Part shown: one piece after another, positions 46,486 through 57,401 of the stretch
How positions within the stretch are numbered: position 1 is the stretch's first letter
Layout: every line of letters starts with the position of its first letter
Source: Pirellulales bacterium
Lineage (GTDB): Bacteria > Planctomycetota > Planctomycetia > Pirellulales > PALSA-1355
DNA length: 64,000 bases
Direction of reading: 5' to 3'
Assembly (NCBI GenBank): GCA_963733035.1
Contig: CAVTBU010000010.1
Span: 32,001-96,000, forward strand
Translations under genes and position numbers: made by a program
The notes under the pieces: model-generated
The model's input: only the letters and a program-made list of their open reading frames with translations
What the model was told of the DNA's origin: nothing
Database searches by the model: none

Positions 46486-48592
46486 ATGACCGGCACGATT
46501 CCCACACTGCTCGTACTGATTCCGGCGTTGCCGCTTTTGGCGGCCGTCGTCACGGCGGTGTTTGGCGCTCGCCTGCTCAAAGCGCGGAGCCACTTGCCGG
46601 TGGTGCTGGCACTCGTCGGGGCGTTCGGTTGCAGCCTGTTGCTGTTGGCAGAAGTTCGCAAGGCGGCCAACGAGGACACTTCGATGGTCGGCTGGGAGCG
46701 GACCACGGTGCTTTGGAACTGGGCGCAGCTGGACGGGGCAATTGATACCGACAGCGTTTCGCACGCCGCGCCGGCCGCCGGCGCTGCCGCATTGCCGGAG
46801 AGCTTGCCGTTTGCGGTTGACATCACGCTGCGGGCCGATGCCCTCACGGCGATCATGCTTTGCATGGTGACGTTTGTGTCGTCGCTGGTGGCGATTTACG
46901 CCGGCGGATACATGCATGGCGATCGCGGCTATTGGCGGTTCTTCAGCTACATCGGCCTGTTCGTGTTTTCGATGACGATGCTGGTTTCGGTCAGCAACTT
47001 CGTCCTCTTATACGTGTTCTGGGAAGCCGTGGGCCTGTGCAGCTACCTGTTAATTGGCTTTTGGTATGAAAAGCCCGAGGCGGCGGCCGCAGGCAAGAAG
47101 GCGTTTTTGGTCAATCGCATTGGCGACTTTGGCTTTGCGCTGGGACTGTTTCTTATCTGGACGACGTACGGCACGCTGAATTTTCACGACGCTGGCGGCG
47201 TGGCGGGGGTGCTGGGACAAACTCGCTTGGCGGCCCCGGCACTGTTGGCCGGCTTCAGCGACGACTATACGACCCTGGCCACGGCGATCTGCCTGCTATT
47301 GATGCTTGGGGCGTGCGGCAAGAGCGCCCAATTTCCGTTGCACGTGTGGTTGCCCGACGCGATGGAAGGTCCCACGCCGGTCAGCGCTTTGATTCACGCC
47401 GCCACGATGGTCACGGCCGGGGCCTACATGGTGGCCCGCTGCACGCCGCTGTTCATGGCTTCGCCCGATGCACAGCACGTCGTGGCCGCGATCGGCGCTA
47501 CGACTGCCGCCATCGGCGGAATCATCGCCCTCACGCAAACCGACTTGAAGCGGGTGCTCGCCTATTCGACGATCAGCCAGCTCGGCTACATGTTTCTCGG
47601 ACTGGGGCTCGGCACGATGGCTGGCATCACGTCTGGCATGTTCCACCTGTTCACGCACGCGTTTTTCAAGGCCCTGCTGTTCCTGGGGGCCGGCAGCGTG
47701 ATGCATGCGATGGGTAACGTCATCGACATGCGCCGCTTCAGCGGCTTGCGAAAGGTCATGCCCACGACGCACTGGACGTTTCTGTTCGGCTGCCTGGCGC
47801 TCGCCGGCATGATCCCGTTTGCCGGGTTCTGGAGCAAAGACGCGATCATCGCGGCTGCCTACGAGCGCGGCTTCCACGAACAGATTGGGTTGTTCAAAAC
47901 GCTGTACTGGGTGGCCACGATCGTGGCTTTCCTCACGGCGTTTTACACCTTCCGGGCGTTCTTCATGACATTTTACGGGCCGGAACGCGTGCCGCACGAA
48001 GCCGGACATCACGCCGCACGAGTCGCCCCGGTCGATGACGATTCCCTTGATGATTCTGGCTCTCGGTTCGCTTGTCGTCGGTGCGTATTTTTCCTGGACG
48101 GGCAGCTTCAACGCGTTCTTGCAACAGACCCCCTCGCTGGCCTTCGCTCCGCTGCAGGGCACGGTTGATCATTCGGAGTATGCTCACGAGGCGCACCAGA
48201 CGGTGAGCATGATCGGCACGCTGGTCGCGCTGGCCGGCATTGGGCTGGCTGCTTTCCTGTATCTTGGCGAAAGATCGCTCGTGCTGACACTACAGCGTCT
48301 TTTGGCTCCCCTGTATTGGCTGTCGCACGGCAAGTTGTTCTTTGACCAGATTTACTATGCCCTGGTCGTGTGGCCGCTGGAGCTGTTGGCCAGCTTCAGC
48401 TACTGGTTCGATCGGCGAGTCATTGACGGCCTGGTGAACTTCATCGGGCGGATTCCGCCGTGGATCGGAGCCGGCATGCGGCCGCTGCAGAGTGGGCTGG
48501 TGCAGTTTTACGCGTTGGCGATGGTGTGGGGCGTGCTCGTATTGGTGCTGACGCTACTAATTTGGCCGGCGCTTGGCGCGGCCTTCAAATAA
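46486..48592 (+). CDS. nuoL: NADH-quinone oxidoreductase subunit L; frameshift near 48015
   Basis: WEAVGLCSYLLIGFW, NRIGD, GKSAQFPLHVWLPDAMEGPTPVSALIHAATMV, HAFFKALLF; the second frame gives HESP.SMTIPL, DGLVN, QSG.VQFY. Confidence 0.94.
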
Positions 48593-48608
48593 CGGGAGTT
48601 CGTTCGCC

Positions 48609-50261
48609 TTGGATTCGACGTCGACACTGTTGCTCGTGACGATCCTGCTGCCGTCGATCGGCGCGCTGGTCGTGCTCGCGCTGGCCGATCAGGGACCGAG
48701 CGGCGCCCGTCAGTCCGCGCTCGTCACGTCGCTGCTGACGCTTGCCGTAGCGGTCGCGCTCGTCTGGAACTTCGATCCGAGCGCGGAAGTTTACGCTCCG
48801 GTGACGATGAGTTGGCTGGGACCATCATCGGGCGTGGACGTCCAGTTCAGCCTGGGGCTCGACGGGCTGAGCATCTGGCTGTTCGCCCTCTCGGCGCTGC
48901 TGCTGTTCACCTGCGTACTGGTGAGCTGGGAGGCGATTACCGATCGCCCGGCCGTGTTTTATTGCCTGCTGCTGCTGTTGGGCAGCGGCATGCTGGGCGT
49001 ATTTGCCGCCCGCGATATCATCCTGTTCTATGTCTTTTTCGAGTTTACGCTCATACCGTTGTTCTTTCTGGTTGGCGTGTGGGGCTCGGAAGAACGCCGC
49101 TACGCCGCCATCAAGTTCTTTTTGTACACGCTGGCCGGCAGTCTGCTCACGTTTCTGGGGCTGCTCACGATCGTGCTGTGGGACTACAACCACTCGGCGA
49201 CCGGCGTGATGACGTTTTCGATTCCCGCTTTGACGGCCGGGCTGGCCGAACATCCGCTGGCACAGCCGTATCAACTGTGGGTCTTCCTGGCGTTGTTCGC
49301 CGGCTTTGCGATCAAGGTGCCGCTGTTTCCGCTGCACACCTGGCTGCCGCTGGCGCACACGCAGGCGCCGACCGCCGGTAGTGTAATTCTGGCCGGCGTG
49401 CTGCTGAAAATCGGCACTTATGGTTTCGCCCGCTTCAGCATTCCGATGTTGCCCGAAGCCACCGCGATGTGCATTCCCTGGATCCTGGTGCTTTCAGCCG
49501 CCGGCATTATTTATGGCGCCTTGGTGGCCTTGGCGCAAACCGATCTCAAGCGATTGATTGCCTATTCCAGCGTTAGCCACCTTGGGTTTTGCATGCTGGG
49601 GCTGTTTGCCCTGACGACGCTCGGCGTCGAGGGGGGCGTGCTGCAAATGGTGAATCACGGCCTCTCGACCGGCGGGCTGTTCGCCGTGGTGGGCATGATT
49701 TACGAGCGGTACCACACCCGCGAGATTCGCCAGTTCGGCGGGCTCGCGCGGCGGACGCCTGTGCTGGCTTTCTTTTTCCTGCTGTTCACACTGTCCAGCA
49801 TTGGCTTGCCGGGCATGAACGGTTTCGTGGGCGAGTTCATGGTGCTGGCCGGCATGTTTCAGCGGGCCTGGACCACGGCTCCGGCCGGATTGGAGATACT
49901 GTACAAGGTGATCGCGGTCGCGTCGGTTTCCGGCGTGGTGCTGGGGGCGTGGTACATGCTGTACCTGGTGCAACGCGTGTTTTTCGGTCCGCTCCGCGAG
50001 CCACACCATGGGGGCGAGCAGGGGCATTCGGCCGTGCGCGATCTGGGCTTTCGCGAACTGGCTGCCCTGGTGCCGCTGTGCGTATTCGTGTTTTGGATCG
50101 GTTTGCAGCCGGATTTCTTCTTGAGCCGCATGCAGAACTCGCTCAAGCCGCTAAGCCACGGGGCACAACAGGCGCTGCTCGAGCGCAACCAGGACATCGC
50201 GCCGGCGGCGCTTGCCCAGCAAACTTTGAGTGCCAAGGGGGAATCGCCGCGTGTCGAATGA
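48609..50261 (+). CDS. nuoM: NADH-quinone oxidoreductase subunit M
   Basis: LGLDGLS, FFEFTLIP, KVPLFPLHTWLPLAH, LLKIGTYG, AYSSVSH, GLPGMNGFVGE; TTG start with GGGAG RBS. Confidence 0.94.
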   Translation: MDSTSTLLLVTILLPSIGALVVLALADQGPSGARQSALVTSLLTLAVAVALVWNFDPSAEVYAPVTMSWLGPSSGVDVQFSLGLDGLSIWLFALSALLLFTCVLVSWEAITDRPAVFYCLLLLLGSGMLGVFAARDIILFYVFFEFTLIPLFFLVGVWGSEERRYAAIKFFLYTLAGSLLTFLGLLTIVLWDYNHSATGVMTFSIPALTAGLAEHPLAQPYQLWVFLALFAGFAIKVPLFPLHTWLPLAHTQAPTAGSVILAGVLLKIGTYGFARFSIPMLPEATAMCIPWILVLSAAGIIYGALVALAQTDLKRLIAYSSVSHLGFCMLGLFALTTLGVEGGVLQMVNHGLSTGGLFAVVGMIYERYHTREIRQFGGLARRTPVLAFFFLLFTLSSIGLPGMNGFVGEFMVLAGMFQRAWTTAPAGLEILYKVIAVASVSGVVLGAWYMLYLVQRVFFGPLREPHHGGEQGHSAVRDLGFRELAALVPLCVFVFWIGLQPDFFLSRMQNSLKPLSHGAQQALLERNQDIAPAALAQQTLSAKGESPRVE

Positions 50262-51906
50262 GACCGTCATCCTGCTGCTGCCAGAAATCATTCTGGTGCT
50301 CGCCGGCACGCTCATCTACCTGGGCGGGGCGTTTCTGCCGTCACGCTCCGTGTGGGGCGGATTGAGTGTATTGGCTATCTTCGCGGCGCTGGCGATGCTC
50401 TATCATCAGGGGACGACCGAGGGGGTGCGCGAAGCATGGGCTACCGGCAGCGTGAGCGGCCCGATCACGATCGATTGGTTTTCCACGGCATTCCGCTATG
50501 GCGTGCTGGCAGTGGGCCTGGTGTTCGTATTGACTGGCTCGCGCTGGTCGCATGCGGGGCAGGGGGATGCCTCGGAATTCCAGGGCTCGCTCTTGATGAT
50601 CCTGGCGGGGCTGAATCTGGTGGCTTTGGCCAACGATCTTGTGATGGTGTTCGTGAGCCTGGAGCTGATTTCGATTCCCACGTACGTGCTGTTGTATCTG
50701 GGGCGCGGCACCAACCTGCTGGAGTCAGGCACGAAGTACTTTTTCTTGAGCATCCTGTCGAGTGCGCTGATGCTCTACGGGTTCAGCTTTCTGTATGGTG
50801 CCGTCGGCTCGACGAGCCTGCTGCGGATTCGCGAGGTGCTGGCCGATCCGGATGCCAACGCGGCGGCCATGGCTTCGTTCAGCCAACTGGCGTTGATTTT
50901 GATTTTCGCCGGATTGGCTTTCCGCCTTACCGCCGTGCCGTTCCACTTTTATGCTCCCGACGTCTACCAGGGGACGAGCAACGCCAATGCCGGCGTGCTG
51001 GCCGTGGTGCCGAAGATCGCGGCGCTGGCCGTGCTGGTACGAATCGTCTACGTGGCCATGCCGGGCCTGGAGCAGTTGGGTTGGCAGCTGACGCTGGCCG
51101 TGGCGATGGTCACGATGACGCTCGGCAATCTGCTTGCCCTGTGGCAGGCGAACGTGCGGCGGATGATGGCCTACTCGTCGATCGCCCATGCCGGCTACAT
51201 GCTGATCGGGCTTTCGGTTGGGTTTGCCGTCGCCGGCGGTGCGACCGAAGCGGAAGCGTTCGACGGCGTGGGCGCGACGTTGTTTTATCTGTTGGTGTAC
51301 GCCGTGGCGACGGCCGGCACGTTTGCCGCGCTGACGTACTTGAGTGGAGATCGCCGGGCCGTGAATGCCGTCGACGATCTGGCCGGTCTGAGCAGCACCT
51401 ATCCCAAAACGGCCGCCGCGATTTCGCTGTTCATGTTCTCGCTGACGGGCCTGCCGCCGCTGGCCGGCTTCTGGGGCAAGTTTGCCCTCTTCACGGGCGC
51501 GCTGGGCGTGGATGCCAAGAATCCCGAGGCGGGAAATCTGTGGCCGTGGTTCCTGGCACTGGCGGTGGTCGGCGTTGTGAATGCCGCCATCTCAGCCGGC
51601 TACTACCTGCGGATCATCGGCGTGATGTATTTCCGCTCGATGGAGAATGAAGCGCCCGAAGGCCGCGGCGGGATCGGAGCCGGCTTCGCCACGGCCCTCT
51701 GTGCGCTGGCCGTGCTGGGCATCGGCGGTTTTCCCGGCCCGTTCGTTGAGTCGGCGAAGGAGGCCAGTCGCTCAGCGAGGGGGGCAGTTGCGCCTGCCGA
51801 AGCAGCGACGGTCGACGCCTCGCGTGTCGAAGATGCTCCGGTAGTACGGCCACCGGCGGAAGCAGCCTCGGTCGTCACGCCGGCGACGCGCCGATCGAGC
51901 CGTTGA
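50251..51906 (+). CDS. nuoN: NADH-quinone oxidoreductase subunit N
   Basis: LLPE, LELISIP.Y, KYF, AVPFHFYAPDVYQG, AYSSIAHAGY, GLPPLAGFWGK, YYLR. Confidence 0.94.
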   Translation: MSNETVILLLPEIILVLAGTLIYLGGAFLPSRSVWGGLSVLAIFAALAMLYHQGTTEGVREAWATGSVSGPITIDWFSTAFRYGVLAVGLVFVLTGSRWSHAGQGDASEFQGSLLMILAGLNLVALANDLVMVFVSLELISIPTYVLLYLGRGTNLLESGTKYFFLSILSSALMLYGFSFLYGAVGSTSLLRIREVLADPDANAAAMASFSQLALILIFAGLAFRLTAVPFHFYAPDVYQGTSNANAGVLAVVPKIAALAVLVRIVYVAMPGLEQLGWQLTLAVAMVTMTLGNLLALWQANVRRMMAYSSIAHAGYMLIGLSVGFAVAGGATEAEAFDGVGATLFYLLVYAVATAGTFAALTYLSGDRRAVNAVDDLAGLSSTYPKTAAAISLFMFSLTGLPPLAGFWGKFALFTGALGVDAKNPEAGNLWPWFLALAVVGVVNAAISAGYYLRIIGVMYFRSMENEAPEGRGGIGAGFATALCALAVLGIGGFPGPFVESAKEASRSARGAVAPAEAATVDASRVEDAPVVRPPAEAASVVTPATRRSSR

Positions 51907-52080
51907 TACGGCATCGGTTTTTGTTTACGGCGACCCGAGCAAGGATTGGCCAATTGTCACCACAGACGGTGGGAATTGCCGCTTTTTTCTCGTCGCGAGC
52001 TGCCGTTGCTGGCAGTTGGTGGAGCTTTTCGGCATAAGCGACTATGCTGGAGGCGGGGCGGAGCTTCACAGAGAAGTCGC

Positions 52081-53448
52081 ATGTCTTCAATTCGACAATC
52101 CGCGACGGAGCTGTCCAGGTTCTTGGACAGTGGCGCGGCGCCGGTTTACGTTCTCGACGAGGACCGGCGAATTATTTTTCTGAACGCGGCTTGCGCCGAC
52201 TGGCTCGGTGTACGGGCCGATGCGCTTGTGGGGCAACAGTGCAACTATCATGCGCCGGTTGCCGACGGTTCGCCGGCCACCGTTGCCGCAGGCTTGTGCC
52301 CGCCGCCGCAGGTCTTTTCGGGCCAGGCGCAACAGGCCGTGGTGAGTTGCCCCCGCGCCGGAGGCGGCATGGTGCATCGCCGCGGATACTTTTTGCCGCT
52401 GGCCCCGGGGGAAGACGAAAGCGCCCCGGTGATGGCGGTACTTGAATGTGCGGATTGCGCGGTGGACGCTCATGCCGAAGACGGCGATTCGCCGCATGTG
52501 TTGCATGAGCAACTGCGCCGTTTCCGCCAGCGGATGGCCGGACGGTTTTCACCTGACCGGTTGGTCGGTCGGCATCCGCTCGTCAATCGTGCCCGCTCGC
52601 AAATCGAAGCGGCGGCTCGCAGCGGGGCCAGCGTGCTGATTGTCGGGCCGCCCGGATCCGGGAAGGAACACGCCGCGAAGGCGATTCACTACAGCCAAAG
52701 CGAGCCGGGCTTGCTGGTGCCGATCGATTGCGCCGTGATGGAAGCGAACCTCGTCCGCTCGACGCTGCGCACGTTGTGTGCACGCCGCGGCAGCCGACCG
52801 CCCGGCAGCACGCTGCTACTGGAAAACGTGGCCCAGTTGGCCGTCGATGCTCAGGAAGAGCTGCTGGAGATTCTTCGTGGTGGCGCTCTGCAAATGCGAC
52901 TCACGTCGACCACGTCCGTGCCGCTCGCGGAGCGGATGGCCGAAGGAATGTTCTCGCAGGAGCTGGCCTGCGCCTTGAGCACGCTGGTGCTGGAATTGCC
53001 GCCGCTGGCCGACCGGATCGAAGACTTGCCGCTGTTGGTGCAGTCGCTCGTCGAGGACTTGAACGTTGGCAAATTGCGGCAGGTCGCCGGTTTCTCGCCT
53101 GAGGCATTGGATCAACTTGCCGCCTATCCGTGGCCCGGCAACATCGACGAGCTGGGGACGATCGTGCGCGAAGTGCACGAAAAGGCGCAAGGCGTCGAAG
53201 TCTCACCGCGCGATCTTCCCAAGACGATTCAATGGGGTGCCGAGGCGGCCAGCCAGGCCAATCGCGGCGACGATGCGATTGTGCTGGAGGAATTTTTGGG
53301 CCGTGTCGAGAAGGAACTCATTGCCCGCGCCATGCGACGTTCGAAGGGAAACAAGAGCCGGGCGGCCAAGCTGCTGGGGCTCACACGCCCCCGGCTCTAT
53401 CGGCGGCTGGTCCAGTTGGGGCTCGAACAGCCCGGTGGTGCCAAGTGA
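52081..53448 (+). CDS. PAS - degenerate NtrC-type AAA+ - Fis HTH regulator
   Basis: PAS-like PVYVLDEDRRIIFLN; Walker A GPPGSGKE; WPGNIDEL; GNKSRAAKLLGLTRPRLYRRL. No GAFTGA; Walker B reads LLLENV. Confidence 0.82.
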   Translation: MSSIRQSATELSRFLDSGAAPVYVLDEDRRIIFLNAACADWLGVRADALVGQQCNYHAPVADGSPATVAAGLCPPPQVFSGQAQQAVVSCPRAGGGMVHRRGYFLPLAPGEDESAPVMAVLECADCAVDAHAEDGDSPHVLHEQLRRFRQRMAGRFSPDRLVGRHPLVNRARSQIEAAARSGASVLIVGPPGSGKEHAAKAIHYSQSEPGLLVPIDCAVMEANLVRSTLRTLCARRGSRPPGSTLLLENVAQLAVDAQEELLEILRGGALQMRLTSTTSVPLAERMAEGMFSQELACALSTLVLELPPLADRIEDLPLLVQSLVEDLNVGKLRQVAGFSPEALDQLAAYPWPGNIDELGTIVREVHEKAQGVEVSPRDLPKTIQWGAEAASQANRGDDAIVLEEFLGRVEKELIARAMRRSKGNKSRAAKLLGLTRPRLYRRLVQLGLEQPGGAK

Positions 53449-54148: not shown

Positions 54149-55228
54149 GTGATGGCTGAAAGCCAACTCGATCGGGCCGCCGTGACCGCGGCGCTGGACA
54201 GTTTCAACGATCCCGAGTCGGGGCGAAGTCTGGCGGCCAGCGGGCAAGTCGGCGATATCGCGATCGACGGGGGAAGCGTTACGGTGACCATTGGTTTGAC
54301 TTCGCACTCGGCGATCTTGCGAGAGGAAACCCTCGCCGCGCTGGAGAAACACTTGCGCGAGAAGCTTCCGGCCGTGGGGGACGTCTCGATCAAGGTGACC
54401 GAACACCAGCGTCCACCAGCGAAGCTGGGGCAAATCGGGCTGACGGCCAAGTCGGTCGTGGCCGTCGGATCGGGCAAAGGCGGCGTCGGCAAAAGCACGA
54501 TTGCCGCGTCGCTGGCGTTGGGACTGGCCCGCGCGGGGAGCAAGGTCGGGTTGATGGATGCCGACGTTTACGGTCCCAGCATTCCGCATCTATTGGGCGT
54601 CAATCAGCGACCGGAAGTTCAAGACGGCCGTATTCAGCCGATTGAAGTCTCGGGGCTGAAAGTCATCTCGATGGGCTTTTTGGTGCCGCCGGGCGAAGCC
54701 GTGGTTTGGCGGGGTCCGATGCTGCACGGGGCGATCACGCAGTTCTTGCGCGACACGGCCTGGGGCGATTTGGACTATTTGATCATCGACATGCCGCCTG
54801 GCACGGGCGACATTGCCTTGACGCTCTCGCAACTGTTGCCGCTCTCGGGCGCGGTGATCGTGTGCACGCCGCAAGACGTGGCGCTGCTCGACGCGATCAA
54901 GGCGGTGGCCATGTTTCGCAAGGTAAACATCCCGATCCTGGGGATGGTCGAAAACATGAGCGGTTTCGTGGTGCCCGAGACGGGTAAGCGATACGACATC
55001 TTCGGCGCCGGTGGCGCAAAGACCAAAGCGGCCGAACTTGGCATTCCGTTTTTGGGCGAAGTGCCGATCACGATCAGCATCCGCGAAGCGGGCGACGAGG
55101 GACGAACCGCGGCGAATTTCGACGACCCGCAGGCGCGGCCTTATCTGCAGACGCTGTGCGAAAACCTGGTGCGAAATCTGGCCGGATCGCGAGACCGGGC
55201 GGGCATTTTGCCGACGCTGACGCTGTAG
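54149..55228 (+). CDS. mrp: Mrp/ApbC/NBP35 Fe-S cluster carrier ATPase
   Basis: GSGKGGVGKST, DADVYGPS, WRGPM, DMPPGTGD, TPQDVAL, VENMS. Confidence 0.94.
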   Translation: MMAESQLDRAAVTAALDSFNDPESGRSLAASGQVGDIAIDGGSVTVTIGLTSHSAILREETLAALEKHLREKLPAVGDVSIKVTEHQRPPAKLGQIGLTAKSVVAVGSGKGGVGKSTIAASLALGLARAGSKVGLMDADVYGPSIPHLLGVNQRPEVQDGRIQPIEVSGLKVISMGFLVPPGEAVVWRGPMLHGAITQFLRDTAWGDLDYLIIDMPPGTGDIALTLSQLLPLSGAVIVCTPQDVALLDAIKAVAMFRKVNIPILGMVENMSGFVVPETGKRYDIFGAGGAKTKAAELGIPFLGEVPITISIREAGDEGRTAANFDDPQARPYLQTLCENLVRNLAGSRDRAGILPTLTL

Positions 55229-55301
55229 GGCTAAGGTGTCTGGTGGCAGTGGTTTAGGAGGATGCCCGGGGGCTTTTGGAAGGGTCTCGTTGAGCGGGCA
55301 T

Positions 55302-55344
55302 AAAAAACTAGAGCCGTTCGGATCTGAGGGACCCGAACGGCTCT
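55302..55344 (-). terminator. Intrinsic terminator (minus strand) downstream of the Lys-rich microprotein
   Basis: 12-bp stem AGAGCCGTTCGG / CCGAACGGCTCT; A6 at 55302-55307 gives the U-tail on the minus strand. Confidence 0.75.
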
Positions 55345-55415
55345 TTCTCGTTGTATTCAGTGCCGCTTTTTCAAGCGGACTTCCGCGGCGAAATGTGCCG
55401 CGAGAAGAGGCGCTG

Positions 55416-55490
55416 CTACTTCTTCTTCTTCTTGGCGGCCTTCTTCTTGGGAGCCTTCTTCGCAGCAGCTTTCTTCTTCTTCTTGGCCAC
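55416..55490 (-). CDS. 24-aa Lys/Ala-rich basic microprotein (MAKKKKKAAAKKAPKKKAAKKKKK)
   Basis: AGGAGG RBS 7 nt before GTG 55490; TAG at 55416; own downstream terminator; AT-rich upstream region. Confidence 0.72.
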   Translation of the reverse strand: MAKKKKKAAAKKAPKKKAAKKKKK

Positions 55491-55851
55491 AGTCCGTCCT
55501 CCTAAAAAAATGTTGGCAAGATCCGTCTCGGTGACCTCCAAGTCACAAAATTGCTCCGAGCGAGTCCTACCTGAACAAAAAACAAAAGCCTTCTCGCCGC
55601 GAAGCAACAATCGCTTCGCAATTGAGAAAACTTCAAACACACCCAAGTTCAGGAAAGATCATGAGTATTATTTGTACACATTCCGAAGAAATGTGCAACA
55701 CGAATCTTGACACGAACGCAAAATTTTTTTGCGTTCGCCAGACGCCCTCGCGCGGTCAGTGATGTGCGTTTCAACAACGATCACATCGTTGCACGCGCGC
55801 TTGTTGTTCGGCGCGAGTTGCAAAGCTTGATTGCATCGCGCGAAGCCGCGC

Positions 55852-56658
55852 TTAATAAATCGCGATCGAAGTTCCATCGGCAAACGTTGCCGTTGGTTTT
55901 TTGCCGCGCTGTGGCAACCACAAAAGATGCCGTTGGGCCGGCGTGCGCGTGCGAAGGTAAAGCGTGCGAACGATCGCGCTGCTCGCCGGCGCGTGCGATG
56001 GACCTTCGCTTGTCCAGGTGCCCAAAATATCGCGCCATGCCCGGCCCCGATGGCGAAAACGTATGTGGATCGGATCGAATCCGTACCAGGTCGGGCAATG
56101 CTCGGCGGTCGCACAGCCGCGCTCGGCCGTTAATCGCCGCACCACCTCGTTGAGCGCGAAAGCGCGTCGGGTAGCTTCGGCCAACGTGATACGGCTCGAC
56201 GGAAAAAACAGCGTGCGCAGCATGCCGAATCGTGCCGGCCCGAGCGCGTGCAGGTTGTCGACCGGCAGCAGCGTGACCGTGGTTTTTGCCTCCAGCGCGG
56301 CGAGCCGATCGAGGCATCTCGCAACCCACTCGGCGATTCGAGCGACCGGCTCCTCGTACAGCAAGTCGTTGCCGATATCGGTCACCAGGGCGGCTGTCGG
56401 CAGGGGATCGGCGGCCGTCAAATCGGGCCACAGGTCGCACGATTCGATACCCGGCAGCCGCATGCCGACGAAACGCGTGGTTCGGCCGTAGGAGCGTCCG
56501 TGTCCGAGGGCGGCAAAAACTTGTTGCGGGCCGCCCCACACCCGATCGGCCGTTTCCAGCACCGTGCCGATGCCCTTGGTCAGATTGCTCGCACCCAGGA
56601 GCACCACGCGCCGCTTGGGGGCAGGTGGCCGCGGCGCGCCTTTTCGGCGGCGGATCAC
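55852..56658 (-). CDS. SGNH/GDSL-hydrolase-like hypothetical protein
   Basis: VVLLGASNL (block I variant), TDIGNDL (block III), FDPIH (block V DxxH); GTG overlaps the upstream stop (GTGA). Confidence 0.7.
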   Translation of the reverse strand: MIRRRKGAPRPPAPKRRVVLLGASNLTKGIGTVLETADRVWGGPQQVFAALGHGRSYGRTTRFVGMRLPGIESCDLWPDLTAADPLPTAALVTDIGNDLLYEEPVARIAEWVARCLDRLAALEAKTTVTLLPVDNLHALGPARFGMLRTLFFPSSRITLAEATRRAFALNEVVRRLTAERGCATAEHCPTWYGFDPIHIRFRHRGRAWRDILGTWTSEGPSHAPASSAIVRTLYLRTRTPAQRHLLWLPQRGKKPTATFADGTSIAIY

Positions 56659-57401
56659 CGATAGCCTCCCCAACCGCCACCGCGGCCGCTGAAGGCCTGA
56701 ATGGCCATGTAGCTGTTGTAGGCCAAATAGCCACAGAAGAAGGTCAGGAAGGCATCGTGCAGTCGAACCCAGGCCAGCACGCCGGCACCAGCCGCTACGA
56801 AGACCGACAGCCAGAGCGACATCTGCAGACCGTCGCGCGGTTGGATCGATTGCAGAATCTCTTGCGAAATCTTGCCGCCGTCGAGCGGCCAGATCGGCAA
56901 AAGGTTCACGAGCCCCCAAAAGATGTTCACGTAGAGCAAATCGACGATGAGCCGATTGAGGTTGTCGTTGCTGAAATATACGAAGCGAACGGGCAGGATT
57001 GTTTCCGGCCAACCCATGGCCACTCGATGACCCGAAGCGACGATTAGCGCCACGATTAGTCCCGCGAAGAGAAAGCCGGCCAACGGCCCCGCAAACGAAA
57101 TGGCGATCTGCTTAAGCGCGCTGCGATCGGTGGGACGATAGGACGCCAGTCCGCCAAAACTATAGAGCGTGATCCAGGGTGCCCAGCCGTAGGCCCGCGC
57201 CACCAAGGCATGACCCATTTCGTGGACCACGACGGAGACGAAGACCGCGCCCACCCACAGGATCATCTCCAGCGGTTGTTCGTTGGCGCACACCCCGAGG
57301 AAGGCGGCCACCAGCCAGAACAGCGGATGCACGCGAATCGGAATGCCGAACGCGCGGAACCGCAGGTCGTAGGCGGTTTGTGGGGGCTCGTTGAAGATCA
57401 C
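56655..57401 (-). CDS. Site-2 protease (M50) membrane metalloprotease
   Basis: GIPIRVHP, VVHEMGH, AGPLAG, NLLPIWPLDGG. Confidence 0.92.
   Translation of the reverse strand: MIFNEPPQTAYDLRFRAFGIPIRVHPLFWLVAAFLGVCANEQPLEMILWVGAVFVSVVVHEMGHALVARAYGWAPWITLYSFGGLASYRPTDRSALKQIAISFAGPLAGFLFAGLIVALIVASGHRVAMGWPETILPVRFVYFSNDNLNRLIVDLLYVNIFWGLVNLLPIWPLDGGKISQEILQSIQPRDGLQMSLWLSVFVAAGAGVLAWVRLHDAFLTFFCGYLAYNSYMAIQAFSGRGGGWGGYR

Follow-up and report, generated by a model that had tools for sequence, protein, structure and literature searches.

A Lys/Ala micro-gene next to apbC in Pirellulales: a candidate nucleic-acid-binding polycation with a conserved structured leader

Planctomycetes are known for their condensed nucleoids, and the proteins responsible are poorly defined. 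Could one of them be a peptide of 24 residues, too short for standard gene callers to report? The question is raised by a small open reading frame (ORF) lying beside apbC (mrp) in a 64-kb stretch of DNA from a Pirellulales bacterium, hereafter called the window. The original prediction saw a stand-alone Lys/Ala peptide with strong expression signals, and proposed that it is a protamine-like nucleoid peptide or a tiny basic ribosomal protein. We find that the micro-ORF is a genuine micro-gene, expressed separately from its neighbors and overlooked by gene callers. Judged from the genomes searched, it appears limited to one planctomycete order, Pirellulales. We give about even credence to a reading, drawn by analogy, in which its product would be an oligolysine polycation with nucleic acids as its target, DNA being the likeliest, and with its production controlled by the leader RNA.

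The product, MAKKKKKAAAKKAPKKKAAKKKKK, has 15 Lys, 7 Ala and 1 Pro among its 24 residues and none that is acidic, exactly as had been claimed, and this composition is that of the C-terminal tail of histone H1. A peptide of this kind should be unable to fold on its own and is predicted to be intrinsically disordered, with a net charge of about +15. Strand and start codon had not been given; the ORF is read from the minus strand and begins with GTG rather than ATG. The perfect AGGAGG ribosome-binding site, or Shine-Dalgarno (SD) sequence, is present 7 nucleotides (nt) before the start, and the matching CCTCCT anti-SD is found at the 3' end of the host genome's 16S rRNA. The statement that the upstream region is the most AT-rich also holds: the lowest-GC 200-nt stretch of the window is 55537-55736 (GC 0.415, window mean 0.622), and the lowest-GC 100-nt stretch, 55627-55726 (GC 0.36), falls in the same upstream region. 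A terminator had been placed about 70 nt downstream, and its stem begins 71 nt after the stop codon.

Conservation of the locus carries the case for a gene. The DNA of 55230-55800 was matched in 40 of 41 related genomes (the own genome included), with an identity of 83-84% inside the genus, where the matches extend over 425-450 nt, and of about 80% across the leader and ORF in other genera. When 31 related loci were fetched and the own locus was added, the Lys/Ala ORF was found in all 32, and GGAGGA is invariant across the alignment. In 28 of these loci it is followed, after a spacer of 6-7 nt, by GTG-GCC-AAG-AAG and an ORF of 21-28 codons; three loci, from other families, have 78-86 codons. 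Within the family, 23 of 24 other genomes yielded the locus with a Lys/Ala ORF. An exact scan of one genome per species located the SD-GTG-GCC-AAG start pattern at 119 loci at least. Among the matches listed, all 80 rows bearing a title are Planctomycetota (Pirellulales, Pirellulaceae, Thermoguttaceae or Mariniblastus), and the pattern was found in none of 400 other genomes that sample the phylum evenly (3 of the same order, 20 of the same class). Searching outward from apbC, we found a Lys/Ala ORF with another start context in 4 of 9 further loci of the same order, where the frames, read from a provisional upstream start codon, are still open at 39-106 codons; in the other orders of the class, the 20 loci inspected had no such ORF. 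The original prediction had named the lack of a conserved ribosome-binding site and ORF in relatives as the result that would speak against it, and what was found is clearly the opposite.

The variation among relatives is also of the coding type. In 55 distinct short forms the entropies at codon positions 1, 2 and 3 are 0.51, 0.53 and 0.92, so that the third position varies most, and the ORF keeps its frame while the leader tolerates insertions and deletions of 1-2 nt. Open plus-strand frames exist at 55236-55505 and 55351-55710, as is expected of AAG/GCC repeats; in the 40 short-form loci listed, antisense frames have anything from 15 to 159 codons, and we ruled them out as genes since their length is not kept. 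A literature search, which did not extend to subscription journals and bioRxiv supplements, turned up no description of the micro-gene.

These results bear directly on the view that the ORF encodes a classical attenuation leader peptide, with lysyl-tRNA as the signal sensed, or has arisen by chance in simple-sequence DNA. Fifteen Lys codons followed by hairpins and a terminator would suit the former, and repeats that are open in several frames on both strands would suit the latter. However, the strand of the ORF has no gene downstream that could be regulated: the next one, apbC, runs toward the ORF and ends at 55228, an arrangement seen in 25 of 32 loci, and on this ground we rejected transcription attenuation. 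Chance is opposed by an ORF, SD and GTG kept in at least 119 species with coding-type variation, next to antisense frames that are not conserved. Gene order and conservation have thus already largely refuted this view, which we regard as scarcely tenable.

No sequencing run contains the organism itself; the 24 listed runs (22 recorded as RNA) contain only 5-6% of the sampled words. We compared four metatranscriptomes, from 4 studies, with the locus at 80% likeness. Each of the four contains a short contig that spans the leader hairpin and the SD and extends over some or all of the ORF, namely contigs of 275 nt (covering 55384-55596, 8 differing letters), 307 nt (55397-55587, 3 letters), 199 nt (55421-55586, 5 letters) and 165 nt (55450-55594, 5 letters), gaps not being counted. 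The very high depth at 55410-55471 reflects cross-matching of Lys/Ala-coding repeats from many organisms, and the lack of RNA cover at 55100-55380 and 55600-56000 is uninformative, as the flanks of relatives may be less than 80% alike. The contigs weakly support transcription of the locus by close relatives.

What the product does is best approached through its length. Among the pattern loci, product length is continuous from 16 to 104 residues, with a mode at 21-28 (48 of 119; 4 of the 119 products are truncated by locus ends). All are Lys/Ala(/Pro/Thr/Val) repeats and their composition is constant across lengths. The positional orthologues in other families reach 70-104 residues of KKKAA, KKKVA and KKKAT repeats, while the window's form holds only about four KKKAA-type units; in the alignment, a KKAAPKKKA core recurs among the short forms. 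Since length drifts and composition is held, the function is probably a composition-driven one, charge neutralization and compaction of nucleic acid. A polylysine chain of this kind should bind polyanions by its polyelectrolyte behavior. The peptide would thereby bind the phosphate backbone of nucleic acids, neutralize its charge and compact it, and chromosomal DNA would be the most probable target because the positional orthologues are longer, Hc2/H1-like repeat proteins. The proposed likeness to H1 tails and protamines fits these KKKAA/KKKVA forms of 70-104 residues, whose sole family resemblance, to chlamydial Hc2, stays below threshold.

Composition and length plasticity would serve equally well a polycation whose partner is another polyanion, polyphosphate granules for instance, or one that acts as a general counter-ion in the manner of polyamines and is not DNA-specific; the data do not distinguish between polyanion targets. 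The H1-like protein AlgP of Pseudomonas has been proposed to link with polyphosphate granules. On the other hand, no polyphosphate or similar genes are linked to the locus, whose neighbors are an M50 peptidase gene, a hypothetical gene and apbC, and the case is made purely by analogy, so that we consider this variant very improbable.

A second, non-syntenic Lys/Ala micro-gene is found in seven relatives (L156-L162; also L026 and L028). It encodes 21-28 residues, has AGGAGG and an ATG or GTG start, and is preceded by a conserved leader of its own with AACCAAACGAGTTGGTTTGG and an CCGTCCCCAGCTCGG element. This second-copy pattern was not found in the own genome, where the SD-GTG-GCC-AAG pattern is single copy and other Lys/Ala-rich frames are present. 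One of these, a Lys/Ala/Thr-rich ORF of 46 residues (MATKKSTKKATKTPAKK...; own contig C5, about 2457068-2457208, plus strand; L155:2169) preceded by the SD-like motif GAGGAG, may encode a further small protein of the H1-tail-like kind in this genome. Lys-rich tails were also noted at C10:201083 (plus) and C6:814389 (minus).

The second copies, with their different leader, already speak against a role in the ribosome, in which the peptide would be a lineage-specific ribosome-associated micro-protein comparable to bS22, bL37, bTHX and eL41, seated at the surface of the ribosome or within a pocket of its rRNA, with the leader serving autogenous control. Several points speak for this role. Tiny, very basic ribosomal proteins are a documented blind spot of annotation, and bS22 (61% Lys/Arg) and bL38 were discovered only by electron cryo-microscopy, in Borrelia (PMC10618245). 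The gene is near-universal in the family, its strong SD is accompanied by a T-rich enhancer-like tract, a promoter-like box of its own and an adjacent structured leader, and the in-family length of 21-28 residues with the recurring core is suggestive. Nevertheless, the 24-residue peptide matched no NCBIfam family at E <= 10, ribosomal families included, no Pfam family at E <= 0.001 and no PDB chain at E <= 10. Orthologues that span 16-104 residues of pure low-complexity sequence, lacking aromatic or hydrophobic anchors, are unlike proteins of a fixed pocket. The literature search, within the scope given above, turned up no planctomycete ribosome structure. The variable length in particular makes a ribosomal role less likely, and this alternative of the original prediction, weakened by the absence of a family match and by the length range, now appears unlikely to us.

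The features of the locus are collected in the table. Its gene order is M50 peptidase, the hypothetical gene, the micro-ORF and convergent apbC, and the expected synteny with mrp is seen, apbC adjoining the micro-ORF in the 25 loci mentioned. A homologue of the hypothetical gene is complete in 27 of 32 loci and partial in 2, loci L030-L032 with the 78-86-residue forms included. The protein has no Pfam match, its nearest ESM Atlas clusters are unnamed Planctomycetota proteins only, and it is conserved beside the micro-gene across the order at 35-58% identity. Farther away, three consecutive Proton_antipo_M genes (Mrp/NADH-dehydrogenase antiporter type) lie within 46486-53448 of the window on the plus strand, followed by a gene for a sigma-54-dependent activator with PAS domains (51946-53448, plus strand).

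Table. Positions of the micro-gene, its putative control elements and its neighbors in the window (UTR, untranslated region).
Feature	Position	Strand	Remarks
386-residue hypothetical protein, Planctomycetota-specific	55852..57012	minus	upstream, same strand
Promoter-like bipartite box	55671..55698	minus	TTGCAC (55698-55693), N16, TACAAA (55676-55671)
Conserved 5' box GATCTTTCCTGAAC	55647..55660	minus	from alignment of 28 loci; just downstream of promoter-like box
Leader hairpin 1 and U-rich tract (TTTTGTTTTTTGTT)	55575..55634	minus	predicted fold
Leader hairpin 2, three helices	55515..55571	minus	covariance model; ends 11 nt before SD
T7 tract and Shine-Dalgarno AGGAGG	55498..55510	minus	AGGAGG = 55503-55498; spacer to GTG 7 nt
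Micro-ORF	55416..55490	minus	24 codons + TAG: GTG start at 55490-55488, 23 codons after GTG, TAG at 55418-55416; product MAKKKKKAAAKKAPKKKAAKKKKK
Two small 3'-UTR hairpins	55363..55402	minus	CGCGGC/GCCGCG 55402-55384; CCGCTT/AAGCGG 55378-55363; predicted fold
Nearly invariant 3' box ACGAGAAAG	55343..55351	minus	abuts terminator stem
Intrinsic terminator	55302..55344	minus	15-bp stem 55344-55310, loop of 5, T6 run 55307-55302
apbC/mrp, Fe-S cluster carrier ATPase	54149..55228	plus	PF10609, 321.5 bits; convergent

Upstream of the ORF, a TTGCR-N16-19-TAYAM box was found 188-257 nt before the GTG (in one case 330 nt) in 69 of 131 distinct upstream regions, compared with 1 of 144 in the reverse-complement control. 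The window's copy is unique in the own 6.6-Mb genome and has an A/T tract upstream of it at about 55730-55720. The 5' box GATCTTTCCTGAAC, which occurs twice in the genome, is likely the start of the transcript. Hairpin 1 varies in sequence among relatives while the hairpin and a U/G-rich tract are kept, as judged by eye. In the predicted fold, it and TTTTGTTTTTTGTT look like an intrinsic terminator or attenuator, and the hairpin could mark the 3' end of a small RNA of about 90 nt made from the same promoter-like box.

Hairpin 2 is built of helices P1 (GGTAGGA/TCTTGCC), P2 (TCGCTCG/CGAGaCGG) and P3 (GTGAC/GTCAC, with loop TTGGAG), and GGA motifs occur in the P3 loop and in the inner junction, ACGGAT. 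R1, a covariance model for which 17 sequences of the family were used, gave matches at E <= 0.01 in 48 of 100 loci and has a single match in the own genome. RNAalifold showed A-U/G-C exchanges in the outer helix. Paired cells amount to 89.5%, versus 73.3% in shuffles and 37-45% with slid partners; both sides have changed in 17 of 19 pairs, and there are 94 compensatory cells where 22.6 are expected (0 of 500 shuffles). The alignment was fitted to the model, which favors structure, but the slid-partner controls argue that the pairing signal is real. Of the 25 sequences in which P3 could be assigned, 20 carry GGA in its loop, the stem itself varying in sequence.

A GGA in a hairpin loop is the rule for CsrA binding sites. 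As in CsrA/RsmA-controlled leaders, the micro-gene leader has a loop GGA and another GGA overlapping the SD (AGGAGGA) about 35 nt downstream, and CsrA is encoded in the genome; this likeness is at the level of the motif. CsrA (PF02599) has 14 homologues in this genome that exceed the curated cut-off (e.g. G000:C8:224484-224639 and C5:401551-401706), an unusually large set that suggests expanded GGA-based post-transcriptional control. Because of the GGA loop, the GGA junction, the GGA-containing SD and the 14 paralogues, CsrA-type repression of the micro-gene is a concrete guess. So elaborate a leader points to a dosage that matters and is adjusted post-transcriptionally. The expression signals of the original prediction have stood, and the leader, promoter-like box and 3' box, which had not been seen, indicate control rather than mere strength.

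Downstream of the ORF, the two small hairpins are shared by members of the genus and differ outside it. The 3' box is kept widely: [AC]CGAGAAA followed by a hairpin and a T-run was found in 97 of 117 downstream regions, and ACGAGAAAGRGCC occurs once in the 6.6-Mb genome. Comparison across the order indicates that the near-invariance of ACGAGAAAG exceeds what termination alone would require. Nine of the 15 pairs in the terminator stem are G-C, and its tail is AGTTTTTTAT. Since the number of terminator-like sites in the 700-nt region (2, versus 1.3 +/- 1.3 in shuffles) is by itself within chance, support for the terminator comes from conservation of the hairpin, the upper stem of which covaries among relatives. 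Because it lies between an A-rich box and the T-run, the hairpin probably serves convergent apbC as well; closing a convergent pair, it leaves nothing downstream that could be regulated in cis. Pairing of the 5' box or leader with the 3' box was considered and rejected (only 4-7 complementary bases by eye, no covariation).

Could the RNA itself be the main functional unit, with the ORF secondary? It might be a dual-function or regulatory RNA, a protein sponge or target through GGA and (AAG)n motifs, or the source of a 3'-UTR small RNA carrying ACGAGAAAG. Both UTRs are more strictly conserved than most intergenic DNA, the leader hairpin covaries, the 3' box is widespread and genome-unique, a terminator-like hairpin with U-tract sits inside the leader, and 14 CsrA paralogues are available. 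The predicted whole transcript also folds better than shuffles (z = -3.97). However, the SD, GTG and frame are invariant, Lys/Ala composition is kept through expansions beyond 100 codons, third-position variation dominates, and convergent apbC leaves no same-strand gene for regulation in cis. When the leader and 3' element were searched against Rfam, no family reached its gathering score; the best was L20_leader and other hits had E > 1. The L20_leader match, on 55299-55433 of the minus strand (3' UTR and terminator), scored 26.2 bits against a threshold of 58.7 (E 0.007) and is probably a generic hairpin-plus-terminator resemblance. An RNA-first function thus appears to us rather improbable, more so than a ribosomal one.

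We return to the encoded polycation. In this proposal a transcript of about 360 nt, taken from its inferred ends, would run from the promoter-like box through a structured leader of about 170 nt to the SD and GTG, the 24 codons and a 3' UTR closed by the conserved 3' box and the terminator. Peptide dosage would be set after transcription by the conserved leader hairpin, with CsrA-type regulators possibly binding the GGA of the loop, the junction and the SD.

Several observations weigh against it. A canonical sigma-70 scan found no promoter, which is why we only infer that the TTGCAC-N16-TACAAA box acts as one. The GTG start and the elaborate leader could mean that expression is usually low, and the strong conservation of both UTRs may leave room for a function at the RNA level. 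The link to CsrA is one of motif resemblance, and in a second leader subfamily the loop reads CCCCAGC and lacks GGA. As for the RNA contigs, they belong to relatives, their strand, ends and level cannot be read, and DNA carry-over is possible. The 24-residue peptide matches no family, with no Hc2 match at E <= 10. When 8 long orthologues were tested, the best score for PF07382 (HC2), 18.4 bits (E 0.0025), was well below the cut-off of 40, those for the Hc2 model NF038052 and for NF038053 were 11 and 11.1 bits (cut-offs 135 and 80), and 4 of the 8 had no family match at all. The long forms look like Hc2/H1-tail repeats, and the profiles do not place them in the Hc2 or H1-like families; the resemblance is compositional and could be convergent. 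To our knowledge, every characterized bacterial H1-like protein is far longer than 24 residues.

Searches of protein collections gave a similar picture. When HMMER scored 8000 candidates against an orthologue of 51 residues, none matched at E <= 0.01, for which low-complexity correction is the probable cause, and 10 family members were absent, by exact look-up, from a collection of 15 billion proteins. The ESM Atlas contains one 51-residue member, labelled 'hypothetical protein'. The clusters nearest to it are unnamed 'hypothetical proteins' of 38-49 residues, and among clusters to which a Pfam family is assigned, the closest shows HC2 in 17% of its members.

Gene callers do not report this gene, which is conserved across an order and probably expressed; polycationic micro-proteins can thus escape notice as a whole class. 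This micro-gene is a concrete candidate for managing charge in the nucleoid or the ribosome, and its leader hairpin with GGA loop, promoter-like box and 3' box are candidate regulators with no Rfam match at gathering score. A bolder version, which we put forward as speculation and think unlikely to hold in full, is a 'protein polyamine': an abundant oligolysine of 21-28 residues whose riboregulatory leader, perhaps read by CsrA, tunes nucleoid compaction or the charge balance of ribosomes and RNA through the life cycle. If true, it would be the smallest known architectural protein of a nucleoid or ribonucleoprotein, and its conserved leader and 3' box would count as new cis-regulatory RNA elements.

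Among known systems, the tiny ribosomal proteins come closest in size. PMC10618245 describes bS22, bL37 and bL38 as proteins of 24-35 residues, more than 60% basic, missed by annotation and encoded by stand-alone genes, all of which applies to the micro-gene product. Such ribosomal proteins have a fixed length and specific Arg, His and hydrophobic positions, whereas the micro-gene family is pure Lys/Ala, with 21-28 residues within the family and 16-104 overall. Further tiny basic ribosomal proteins are bTHX and eL41.

In composition the family is closest to Hc2 (PF07382, NF038052), Hc1 and the Burkholderia-type H1-like proteins (NF038053), which share its extreme Lys/Ala(/Pro/Thr/Val) content and lack of acidic residues. 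Bacterial H1-like proteins and Hc2 consist of Lys/Ala-rich short tandem repeats whose number varies with lineage, and the same is seen in orthologues of 16-104 residues. Other H1-tail-like bacterial proteins are BpH1/2 of Bordetella, AlgP of Pseudomonas and the tail of mycobacterial HupB. Hc2 has about 150-200 residues compared with 24 in the window's form, and, unlike these proteins, the micro-gene family has its own conserved promoter-like box, structured leader and 3' box and, in the genomes searched, is limited to one planctomycete order. The eukaryotic histone H1 C-terminal domain and protamine-like or oligolysine condensers carry the same AKKA/PKKK-type motifs as the peptide. Unlike H1, the micro-gene is bacterial and its product is far shorter and has no globular domain, and homology is undemonstrable for sequences of this kind. 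The disorder and high positive charge that characterize the H1 tail are likewise expected of the peptide.

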